A stretch of DNA of 64,000 nucleotides from Euglena gracilis (taxonomy: Eukaryota), in NCBI GenBank assembly GCA_039621445.1, contig CP154954.1, positions 21,278,954 through 21,342,953 on the forward strand. The letters run 5' to 3'. This document shows positions 6,508 through 9,500 of the stretch, piece after piece (within the stretch, counting starts at the first letter, position 1; each line of letters opens with the position of its first letter). Under the pieces are notes generated by a model. It did not search any database, had not been told where the DNA came from, and saw nothing but the letters and a program-made list of their open reading frames with translations. Both the position numbers and the translations under genes were made by a program.

Positions 6508-9500
6508 GGCTTCTGTTCCGCGGGAGCAGATCGGTGCGCTGCTGGAGGCGGAGAACCTGACAGTGGGGGCCGAGCTGGGGGTCCAACCCAGGGCTGGGCT
6601 ATGGATCTCCCCACCCGGGACTTTGGCTGTTTTTTTGGTTCACACCCGTAATGGTCAATCAATCTGACCAAAAAAATGAGGGGGAAGGTGTGCATTTTAG
6701 CCCTGCCACTCCAGCCATTTCAGTGCCGGAAACGTGTGCGCCTGCAAGTCCCGCCCTCTAACTTCGTTGTGCTTTTTGGGGGGGAGTGGGTTACCTCTAT
6801 TGTTCGCAAGACTGCACACAAAGGACAATTGACTCTTGGATACTGCCATTCCCGAGAACCCATCAAGCTCCAACCTGGGAAACTGCCAGGGCCGAGCTGG
6901 GTTCCCGGCGGACCTGTCATCCGGTCGAGGTGGTCACGGCCCCCAGCACTAGTCTCCGGCCCAGCCCCGCCCCCGGAGGGCCTCTTTGCCGCCCAAACCC
7001 TCTCGCAGTGGCCCGCCTGCCGGCGGTACTACCTCGTGGACCTGTGGCGGCCCCAGGAGAACTACGAGGAGCGCGCCAACGTCCCCCTCGCGCAGCAGGA
7101 GCGCCACCTGCGCAACGCGCGCCGCCGCCCACGGCTGTGGGTCGGCCACCGTCCTCCTGTGCCCGAACACACACTCAAACGTGTTCACATGTGAACGTTT
7201 TGGGCAATCCATTTTTACAGCTGTGTTTTTTTAGTGCTTTTCGAATTTTGCAGAATTTTTGTTTTTTTGGTTTTCTTGCAATTTTTTTCCTGACAATTTT
7301 TTTTATATCTCTGCTAGGTATTTTTTAGAGAAAATTTCCGATTTTCGGATCTCATTTTTCCCTGAGACCAAAAGTTTTGTTGATTTTTGTCGTTTTTTTT
7401 TCCGAATTTTTTTGCCAACAAATTGCATTCTTCTGACGCAGCATGTTCCCAAAATTTAACCAAAAATATCTGCACTGACTTTTTTCTGGAAGCACAGATC
7501 ATGCATTTCAGTGCCAGTTCGCCAGCCTGACAACCTTTGACCATGGGTTTTCCTGCACTGAAATGTTTTCTGGCAGGACAAATCATACATTTGAGTGCCA
7601 GGTTGCCATGGGGTGGGTGGCCCTCCCATACAGCCCTCCTCCCAGGTGTGGGCTGGTCCATATGTTCCCCAAGGAAACTCATTTTGCAAGGAACTGGGGG
7701 CAGGAATATGAGGCGGGTGTATTTTTTTATATTCAACACTTTTTGTCCCCCCTCCCCGTGCTGACTTCACAAATTTTGGTTGAATTTATCTGATGATTAT
7801 TTTTTTTGGCATTTTAGCAGGCTTTGTCAAGAAATGAGGATAAACCTGTTTGCATTTTCCCTGATGATGATGGTGGTGGTGGTGATGATGATGATGGTGA
7901 TAATAATAATTTGCCTTTCACAAGCCCTGTACACAAGTATGGCAGCTGCAGCAATTTGGCAACCCATATCATCATCAGCAGCAGCAGCAGCATCAGCATC
8001 AGCATCATCATCATCATCATCATCATCATCATCATCATCATCATCATCATCATCATCATCATCATCATCATCATCATCATCATCATCATCATCATCATCA
8101 TCATAGTCATCATTGCGAGCTTCTGCCTTTTGATACAGACTTCATTCAGTTTTAAAACAAAACGCTTTCCTTGGTTCAAATTCGCCAAAAGCATCTTGCC
8201 AAGGTTTCACAGGAACGTCAAAATCATTTGTACTACAGCGCCAACAAGGTCTCAATGCAGCTGCAGTTGCTTGCTTGTGGCATTGCCATCCTCCTCGGGG
8301 GGAGAGGGGGTGGGTGGGTCTGTGGGTCCGCCGGAACCCCCTCTTGCCTCCGAGGGGGGGGGGGTCCCGGCCGGAGGCTTGGGTATGGATTTTGGCGCGC
8401 AGAACCAAATTTTTTTTTGAGGAAATGCCTTTAGACAGCCCGATTTTGGGAGTGGGGGGGACCCCCTCCCCCCTGGGGTCTTAACAAGCAGCCTGTCCTG
8501 GGCTTTCCCGTGGGAAAGGAGAAAGTCTTTCATTTTGCGAAAATGGTTTCCTCGTTTCATTGGATTTGTATGCATTTTTTTTGAGAGTCTCCCTCAACTT
8601 CCATTGTTTGATAACTCTCTCCCTGACCTCTTCCCCATTGCATTTGCATGAATGACTTTTTCCCGGGCATTTCTTCACATGTTTGTGTGATTTTGATTTG
8701 ATTTTAATTTTGCCTGATGTGTGATTCTGGCCGTTTCTTTCTCCAGACTTGGACAGGCCAGCCACGTTCTGGTTGTTGCTTTTTTTGCGCCCAAACCTGC
8801 CACGGCTGTGCCCGCTGACTGCGACCCTTCAATGACACGGTGGTGTTCCTCCGGATGTCCACCAGCGAGGCGGCCAACCATATCCCAGACACCGCAGCCG
8901 CGTTTTCGGTGCTCGTGCCATGGAAACGCTTGCAAGCTTTCTTTGTGCTAGCGGTGGCTCATAGTAGCGCAGGAGGGTGCTGTAGCCAGAACGATGCTGG
9001 ACATCGCCAGGGATGTTTCACAACACCTTTTGCGGCTGTGGCAGGTCTGGAACAGTGGCCGCCACTCCAAACCGGGGCTGTGCCTCGAGTCCCTCGACTA
9101 CGTCTACATCGATGCCCGGCACGACTACTGCGGGGTGAGCGAGGACCTCCGGAACCACTGGCCCAAGCAGGCTTGTGCTTAGTCGGGTGCCTACCCCACG
9201 GGGGGGGGGTGCTAGGGGCAGGCACCCCATAGCACCCACCCCCCTCGCCGGTTGGTAAGCACAAGCCTGGGCCCAAGGTGCGGCCGGGGGGCATCTTCGC
9301 TGGGCACGACTTCTACTTCGCCAACCACTCCATCCTGGGGAAAGACGACTGACGGGGCGGCCACCGCATACTGTTTGGCCGTGGTTGAGAGACGACTAGA
9401 TTTCAGGGGACTCTGATCCAGTGGGTAATTCTCAAACATAATGGAACGCAGTCTGCAAAACCCTGGCCTGGTTGCCGCAAAAGGCTGCAGGAATTCTCTC

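Follow-up and report, generated by a model that had tools for sequence, protein, structure and literature searches.

Here we describe a MITE, a miniature transposable element with inverted repeats at its ends, that interrupts a coding exon of a methyltransferase gene of Euglena gracilis and that is, in our judgement, very likely removed from the transcript as a nonconventional intron. The element occupies positions 9168-9269 of a 64,000-nucleotide stretch of contig CP154954.1 (positions 21,278,954 to 21,342,953 of the forward strand), which we call the window and whose coordinates are used throughout (Table 1). It is flanked by two copies of an 8-bp target site duplication (TSD), and it lies between codons for a conserved run of residues. 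We consider it highly probable that a MITE was inserted here and that the segment 9165-9274, that is, the element together with one whole copy of the duplication, is taken out by scarless nonconventional splicing. In addition, we put forward a wider idea, to which we give a good deal less weight: the geometry of the nonconventional splicing code could itself reflect the ends of hAT-like transposons and their 8-bp duplications.

The element and the exon it interrupts

The anatomy of 9168-9269 is that of a MITE insertion. The element is short and without coding capacity, and it ends in terminal inverted repeats (TIRs), the left one being CAGGCTTGTGCTTA, whose arms are complementary at 14 of 14 positions in the repeat search with a gap of 74 nt between them. 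The direct repeat GGCCCAAG, identical at 8 of 8 positions and with a spacing of 110, abuts these TIRs exactly. Thus, the 102-bp element with perfect 14-bp TIRs and a perfect 8-bp TSD that the initial annotation had described is confirmed in both coordinates and sequence. Four structures in the window, counted after a low-complexity filter, combine a perfect TIR of at least 8 bp with an exact abutting 8-bp direct repeat, where 30 first-order Markov simulations average 0.03. Similarly, the 14-nt terminus, allowing up to two mismatches, occurs four times in the window against a shuffle mean of 0.47, and none of the 100 shuffles contained at least four occurrences. An Rfam scan of 8700-9800 returned only three microRNA-like hairpin matches, all below threshold (20-26 bits against gathering scores of 71-100), and on these scores a microRNA-like hairpin reading of the region was dropped.

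The reading frames on the two sides of the element, ...YIDARHDYCGVSEDLRNHWPK upstream and VRPGGIFAGHDF... downstream, lead to a methyltransferase. A protein search with the upstream frame retrieved a single protein, the transcript-derived EukProt entry EG_transcript_18523 of Euglena gracilis (hereafter P0001), which has 288 residues and carries PF13578. Over the first 261 residues, the spliced coding sequence (CDS) of the window departs from P0001 at Y157H and A186T and agrees with it at the other 259; judged by this match, the window belongs to Euglena gracilis or to a very close relative. P0001 runs straight across the element site (...YWPKVRPGG...), and the junction is ungapped in all 60 aligned homologues, in which W is found in 52, P in 56, K in 55 and the second G in all 60. 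The earlier claim that the element splits a conserved WPK/VRPGG run of a methyltransferase is therefore borne out, both by the ungapped homologues and by the PF13578 gene. The family assignment is based on the precomputed PF13578 match of P0001 and on 128 homologues; the open reading frame (ORF) of exon 5, taken alone against Pfam, reaches PF13578 at 19.2 bits, under the 26.3-bit cut-off. The cluster of P0001 has one member, and a search for shorter proteins gave four at 55-61% identity, none of them from the methyltransferase gene.

A single register that follows the nonconventional code

Knock-ins in Euglena gracilis have set the nonconventional splicing code as 5'-N3CDG-/-CH'GN5-6|R(exon)-3', with a 5' spacer of strictly 3 nt and a 3' spacer that works best at 5 nt and is tolerated at 6 nt (Nomura 2025, PMC12501133; unless a main or whole text is named, papers given with a PMC number are cited from partial texts, and our statements extend as far as those texts). 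Nine registers of 110 nt, from 9160-9269 through 9168-9277, would give an identical messenger RNA (mRNA), in which ...HWPK is joined in frame to VRPGG.... None of these nine has GT/GC..AG ends, and a single one, 9165-9274, follows the code (AAG-CAG ... CTG-GGCCC|A), placing CAG at +4..+6 and CTG at -8..-6 and leaving a purine, the A at 9275, as the first base of the downstream exon. The initial annotation had stated that GT-AG is missing from the element ends, that excision of 9165-9274 restores the ORF and that CAG and CTG fall at these positions; all of this holds, and the register proves to be the sole fit among the nine. Moreover, with element ends of exactly CAG and CTG and a duplication of 8 bp, the 3 nt and 5 nt excised beside the element add up to one copy of the TSD. 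This is arithmetic from the sequence and the published code, and it upholds the proposal that the splicing register cancels an 8-bp duplication. When intron 5 is folded as RNA (-79.6 kcal/mol, z -3.95, equalled by none of 200 shuffles), the TIRs pair, and the stem that they form has both junctions at its base. A conventional alternative, a GTGAG-like site at 9136 with the AG at 9276-9277, was ruled out, since it deletes residues kept in P0001 and breaks the frame.

We could then envisage the following course of events. A non-autonomous MITE with CAG...CTG termini, probably hAT-like, would have landed in the methyltransferase exon and duplicated 8 bp of its target. The 14-nt inverted repeats would pair with each other in the pre-mRNA and bring the junctions together, and nonconventional splicing would cut 3 nt upstream of CAG and 5 nt downstream of CTG. 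Since the element would leave with exactly 8 nt, one copy of the duplication, the mRNA would be restored without a scar.

The other introns of the gene are also nonconventional in their ends: GT/GC-AG is possible for none of the nine when all equivalent registers are checked. RNA joints were found for introns 4 (8889>9086), 7 (9776>10474), 8 (10548>10920) and 9 (10980>11493). The lengths over which introns 1 to 9 can slide, that is, their direct repeats, are 0, 0, 1, 1, 8, 1, 2, 3 and 1, with the element intron, intron 5, as the outlier. An N3-CAGG start is seen in introns 1, 2 and 5, and only introns 5 and 7 follow the strict published code, the latter with CGG/CCG.

Probable removal from RNA and the two alleles at 9156

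Support for the removal of the element comes from P0001, which derives from a transcript and does not contain it, and from the depth of the raw RNA reads X21. These cover exons 4, 5 and 6 at about 35, about 30 and 21-22, and the intron bins 8902-9018 and 9370-9603 at 0. The bin 9136-9252 has a mean depth of 14.1, of which about 7-8 comes from the tail of exon 5; the remainder is matched by 21 reads with foreign flanks at 9168, whose loose part has a median of 89 of 150 letters. At least 25 would be expected if the element were retained at exon depth, so the depth over the element, as far as binned depths can tell, appears too low for retention. A retained element would place an in-frame TAG at 9180-9182. 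In DNA, run X1, the sole DNA run examined, carries the element independently of the assembly. Its contigs, which show 17 substitutions and 7 gaps elsewhere, match without mismatch at both junctions: on the left they leave exon 5 and cover the first 20 nt of the element, and on the right they cover 53 nt of it before continuing through 22 nt made up of TSD and exon 6.

At 9156, a C/T polymorphism decides between H and Y in the residue before WPK, which is a conserved aromatic position, and both forms are present in RNA: C is found in 12 of 21 X21 reads (nine have T) and in 2 of 6 X24 reads (four have T). This residue is Y in 46 of the 60 homologues, W in 13, N in one and H in none, and it is H in the window. 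In DNA, the window and X1 both link C with the element, and T is missing at 9156 from X1 (0 of a depth of 55.5).

Several observations weigh against our interpretation. The joint 9164>9275 is absent among the 15 of 65 joints listed, skipping of the element was seen in neither reads nor contigs, and no X1 contig strictly bridges either junction under a rule of 31 letters on each side (the shorter sides have 20 and 22). P0001 differs from the window in having Y for H (T against C at 9156) and A for T, which indicates that it comes from another allele, strain or paralogue; the DNA behind it, with the T (Y) allele, could be an empty site, and no empty site was seen in X1. In addition, judging from the comparison of homologues, the window allele might be impaired, as H stands in 0 of 60 at this conserved position. 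Finally, no transposase was found, none of the nine long ORFs of the window having any Pfam hit in a search that intron-split genes would escape. Circular intron RNA was not seen either, no search aimed at circular junctions having been made.

It could be argued from such observations that the window holds a dead allele, whose transcript keeps or mis-splices the element and is degraded, the clean mRNA being made from an empty allele or a paralogue. The two differences among 261 residues between P0001 and the window, with Y157H right beside the site, the presence of both T and C at 9156 in RNA and the joint missing from those listed would all be accommodated. However, the C form makes up 12 of the 21 X21 reads and is undepleted, contrary to what nonsense-mediated decay would lead one to expect, and 2 of 2 DNA sources show it together with the element, T being at 0 of depth 55.5 in X1. 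Moreover, the depth of the element bin is below that expected if an allele contributing 57% were retaining it, and the intron matches exactly a code that has been validated experimentally. We thus find a dead allele improbable. The earlier claim that the element is removed from RNA stands in part: the element-free P0001 and the low X21 depth support it, but the joint itself is not among the 15 of 65 listed. Taking both sides together, we regard removal of 9168-9269 as a nonconventional intron as very likely, and we infer that the element-bearing allele is itself spliced and that, of the nine registers, the one in use has its cuts at 9164|9165 and 9274|9275.

A transposon family with 8-bp target site duplications

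The window contains two relatives of the element and a whole population of CA...TG elements with 8-bp TSDs, and therefore 9168-9269 is a member of a real transposon family and not a one-off. In the relative at 47047-47257, which is preceded by CTGTGGAC, the right TIR matches at 9 of 14 positions and the flanking 8-mers at 6 of 8; in that at 50708-51150, the TIRs match at 10 of 14 and the flanking 8-mers again at 6 of 8. The population was found by scanning for CA...TG elements with TIRs matching at 10 or more of 12 positions and an 8-bp flanking repeat with at most one mismatch. From the 34 rows obtained, 24 in a period-19 tandem array (17724-18180) and two in a simple repeat were dropped, leaving eight stand-alone elements; rows of the TIR/TSD scan in simple repeats near 39200, 49200-52500 and 59700-60200 were likewise discarded as repeat artefacts. 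Together with 40806-41047, whose TSD had at first been filtered out, there are nine such elements, compared with 0.1 expected from 10 simulations; at least eight of them are additional to 9168-9269, six of these with CAGG ends. Seven of the nine start with CAGG, and the 8-bp repeats are specific to each copy both in the three-copy family (33080, 34604 and 40806) and in the two-copy family (49175 and 52101). Regarding the exact flank length of the CA..TG elements, eight stand-alone cases have 8 bp, three have 7 bp and none has 9 bp.

Reads and contigs point in the same direction. Foreign left flanks meet the element exactly at 9168 in 36 contigs of the DNA run X1 and, in three RNA runs, in 5 X15 contigs, 21 X21 reads and 16 X24 reads. 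The word depth of X1 is about 1e6 over the element bin and about 55 in its neighbours, a figure of about 1e6 that G-runs and sub-repeats inflate. Among the three copies of the family in the window, one is seen in a coding sequence. Scans of metagenomes gave no match for the 23-nt left end, and none for both TIRs at a gap of 60-90 nt.

These data also bear on the idea that no transposition took place, and that the segment is a palindromic filler captured during double-strand-break repair with 8-nt microhomology. Direct repeats of 8 nt have indeed been interpreted in this way (Milanowski 2016, PMC4770533), and a transposase is found in 0 of the 9 long ORFs. Against it, the terminus of 9168-9269 recurs at other loci with different flanks, several CAGG-ended families have copy-specific 8-bp repeats, and the direct repeat abuts the inverted ends exactly, which together make such a filler very hard to credit.

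A more serious alternative to our wider proposal is coincidence: a MITE happens to fit the code, the spacers of 3 and 5 nt are set by the splicing machinery, on structural grounds of its own, and not by an 8-bp TSD, and most nonconventional introns have another origin. The strict code is followed by 2 of the 9 introns of the gene, and the other eight introns slide by 0-3 nt. In Euglena agilis, the code is found in 61.2% of nonconventional introns, and a 3' spacer of 6 nt is tolerated (Nomura 2025, PMC12501133). In addition, the three larger CAGG-ended elements of the window have exact repeats of 7 bp, and the 8-nt repeat of a young intron was ascribed to double-strand-break repair (Milanowski 2016, PMC4770533). 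Nevertheless, old TSDs decay, so short repeats are to be expected in old introns, and the relatives in the window are already down to 6 of 8; moreover, 8 bp is the dominant exact flank of the CA..TG elements. An independent young intron of Euglena agilis also has exactly 8 nt (PMC4770533), and the donor spacer is strictly 3 nt with an acceptor optimum of 5 nt (PMC12501133). Coincidence is a real possibility in our view, although we lean against it.

As to the superfamily, hAT transposons such as Ac typically combine CAGG(G) ends and 8-bp TSDs, and their superfamily has the terminal consensus YARNG and the target preference nTnnnnAn. The 8-bp TSD of 9168-9269 agrees with hAT; its CAGGC end departs from YARNG at the fifth position, and the CAGGGG... 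and CAGGGT... ends of the sister families fit this consensus. In a small sample of targets, GGCCCAAG shows only the A of nTnnnnAn, and ATAGTGAC and CTGTGGAC show both positions. The consensus of the foreign flanks before the CAGG terminus at 9168 ends in ...GTCCGGAC or similar in all four runs, with an agreement of 0.41-0.54 over 30 nt; this palindromic 8-mer might represent a favoured insertion target, or it might belong to a larger parent repeat.

Merlin (IS1595-like) or P-type transposases, and not hAT, might also conceivably be what moves the element, as two Merlin families of Euglena gracilis, F1 and F2, make 8-bp TSDs as well (PMC8101967). However, Merlin TIRs have a conserved terminal 5'-GG according to the same source (PMC8101967), in contrast with the 5'-CA of 9168-9269, an end that is fixed by the abutting TSD, and the combination of termini and duplication length seen here is the one given above for hAT. 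We consider Merlin or P-type mobilisation unlikely. The hAT/P assignment of the initial annotation is thus no more than plausible: the 8-bp TSD and the CA...TG ends agree with it, but the nine long ORFs yield no transposase and the Merlin families of the same species share the duplication length. The element is probably hAT-like.

Table 1. Coordinates of the features discussed, in positions of the window.
Feature	Position	Strand	Basis or detail
PF13578 (Methyltransf_24) methyltransferase gene, 10 exons, 9 introns	5114-11564	+	tblastn of P0001 on the window
Exon 5, ends ...HWPK; closes with the 5 nt that open the left TSD	9086-9164	+	tblastn, RNA joint 8889>9086
Intron 5, N3 (AAG) CAG ... CTG N5 (GGCCC)	9165-9274	+	sole code-fitting register of nine; RNA fold
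Exon 6, begins on the closing 3 nt of the right TSD and continues as VRPGG...	9275-9350	+	tblastn, spliced CDS
Left TSD copy GGCCCAAG, 8 bp	9160-9167		direct-repeat search, 100% identical to right copy
MITE, 102 bp, non-coding	9168-9269		repeat search and boundary shared with other loci
Left TIR CAGGCTTGTGCTTA	9168-9181		14 nt, 100% complementary to right arm
Right TIR	9256-9269		14-nt inverted-repeat arm, 100%
Right TSD copy GGCCCAAG	9270-9277		8/8 match with left copy
Degraded relative of the 9168-9269 family, 211 bp	47047-47257		first 23 nt as 9168-9190; internal 32 nt 91% identical
Longer relative of the 9168-9269 family, 443 bp	50708-51150		right subterminal 29 nt 93% identical to 9216-9244
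Sister-family MITE, CAGGGGTTTTTTTT ends	33080-33326		exact 8-bp TSD CCCTGAAC
Second sister-family copy, CAGGGGTTTTTTTT ends	34604-34850		8-bp TSD, 1 mismatch
Third sister-family copy, CAGGGGTTTTTTTT ends	40806-41047		exact 8-bp TSD CTCCCTCC
MITE, CAGGGTTTGATATA ends	49175-49574		8-bp TSD, 1 mismatch
Second copy of the CAGGGTTTGATATA family	52101-52499		exact 8-bp TSD
CAGGC-ended element, 303 bp	4748-5050		exact 8-bp TSD; 64 nt upstream of the methyltransferase start codon
CAAG-ended and CATA-ended elements	2395-3271; 20514-20972		exact 8-bp TSDs
Larger CAGGG-type elements, 1.3-1.7 kb	26941-28466; 36145-37419; 48243-49949		TIR up to 24 bp, exact 7-bp flanking repeats

Further observations concern other parts of the window. 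The termini of the CAAG-ended and CATA-ended elements would not fit the CDG/CHG splicing code. Among the larger elements, those at 36145-37419 and 48243-49949 have CAGGGAGGGG ends in common, and that at 26941-28466 (1526 bp) holds no convincing ORF. Within the methyltransferase gene, the joint 10980>11493, found in 26 X21 reads, 4 X24 reads and one X15 contig, has the ends GT..GC. This joint sets exon 10 in a frame other than that of the C-terminus of P0001, which has four extra residues after ...VKKR, so that isoforms or alleles differ at the 3' end of the gene. Intron 7 contains, at 10050-10420, very high-copy repeats rich in G-runs and C-runs (X1 word depth about 1e6 against about 60 nearby), with dozens of spurious joints in the DNA contigs, and intron 3 contains an (ATC)n run of 49 copies (7968-8113). 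Outside the gene, tandem arrays of periods 165, 19 and 212 lie within 17030-18713, and 58000-62000 is a 4-kb block of GT/GC simple repeat with a strong GC skew of up to 0.45. The longest non-repetitive open frame (41306-42487, + strand, 394 residues) matches nothing in Pfam at E 0.01 or better.

Relation to known introns and implications

The origin of the nonconventional introns of euglenids has been an open question since the 1990s, with a MITE hypothesis from 2013. MITE-like insertions were proposed as their source, CA and TG were placed at +4,+5 and -7,-6, and by the account in the available part of that paper no transposon was then known in euglenids (Milanowski 2014, PMC3935182). Subsequently, a newly gained intron of Euglena agilis ACOI 323, intron 4 of gapC, was reported to have eight-nucleotide direct repeats at its junctions, longer than those of other introns; the repeats were interpreted as a sign of double-strand-break repair, and this intron was shown to be present or absent depending on the strain (Milanowski 2016, PMC4770533). 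More recently, a review in Mob DNA presented the euglenid nonconventional introns, with TIRs (CAG/CTG at +4..6 and -8..-6) and TSD-like junction repeats, as a likely case of introners, in a text where '8 bp', '8-bp' and '8 nt' do not occur (2024, PMC11282704). The latest study found 69.1% of nonconventional introns to be slidable, mentions a MITE origin in its discussion and calls the origin unclear; its work on the code used 'nonslidable' introns, and 'TSD' and 'target site dupl' each appear 0 times in its main text (Nomura 2025, PMC12501133). We found no published statement that 3 + 5 = 8 = TSD, nor an intact repeat-family MITE acting as a nonconventional intron, in a search that covered texts outside their supplements. 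The novelty that the initial annotation saw in this locus is accordingly reduced, as both the TIRs with TSD-like repeats (2024 review) and an 8-nt repeat at a young Euglena agilis intron (Milanowski 2016) were already in print.

Intron 5 shares with euglenid nonconventional introns the lack of GT-AG, the N3-CAG that pairs with CTG-N5, the purine at the start of the downstream exon and the stem that joins the junctions. What sets it apart from them is that a member of a repeat family supplies the paired ends, in the form of intact 14-bp TIRs, with a perfect 8-bp TSD on either side. The gapC intron 4 of Euglena agilis likewise has 8-nt direct repeats at nonconventional junctions, but it belongs to another species and another gene, and the available part of the paper reports no repeat family for it (PMC4770533). 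Introners of Micromonas, Aureococcus, dinoflagellates and Fritillaria are likewise DNA transposons of a non-autonomous type, bearing TIRs and TSDs, that turn into introns upon insertion (PMC11282704). In contrast, they depend on the spliceosome and use the TSD or their own sequence as GT/AG signals (PMC11282704), whereas 9168-9269 would take the nonconventional route and lose one whole TSD; moreover, introners form families of introns, whereas the family described here has one intronic copy seen. The Merlin families F1 and F2 come from the same species and have 8-bp TSDs in common with the element, and are set apart by TIR ends of 5'-GG against 5'-CA (PMC8101967).

There is also a resemblance to hAT-type MITEs and to Ds used as introns, which have in common with 9168-9269 the 8-bp TSD, the CAGG-type termini and the removal of a transposon from a transcript. 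The removal of Ds uses cryptic spliceosomal sites and is imprecise; that of 9168-9269 is predicted to be exact. Ds elements are said to have been seen acting as introns by Giroux and colleagues in 1994.

In this context, the locus is a strong test case for a long-standing hypothesis that has been largely anticipated in print, and not a new kind of system. What it offers is an intact and concrete example, in which a member of a repeat family with perfect TIRs and a perfect TSD sits among conserved codons and matches the code base for base. Moreover, an 8-bp TSD supplies a possible reason for spacers of 3 nt and 5 nt that would otherwise be arbitrary. It is tempting to speculate that the whole code geometry (3 nt, CAG...CTG, 5 nt, purine) is the RNA image of hAT-like transposon ends plus one 8-bp TSD, and thus a dedicated means of scarless excision at the RNA level. 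We advance this as a possibility that still falls somewhat short of an even chance. The wider claim is coherent and is backed by the CAGG-ended elements with 8-bp TSDs in the window and by the independent 8-nt case in Euglena agilis; we hold it, from the data of this window, with the same reserve.

If the proposal is true, any CAG-ended insertion with an 8-bp TSD in an exon, in either orientation, would be born as an intron, with a purine at position 6 of the TSD as the only need, and the excised circle would carry the rebuilt 8-nt target site. One would also expect the slidable lengths of young introns to show a peak at 8 nt, CAGG-ended families to be common to introns and intergenic DNA, and a hAT-like transposase with CAGG-type ends to exist. 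Finally, the dominance of nonconventional introns in Euglena would then represent a burst of introners that took a non-spliceosomal route.

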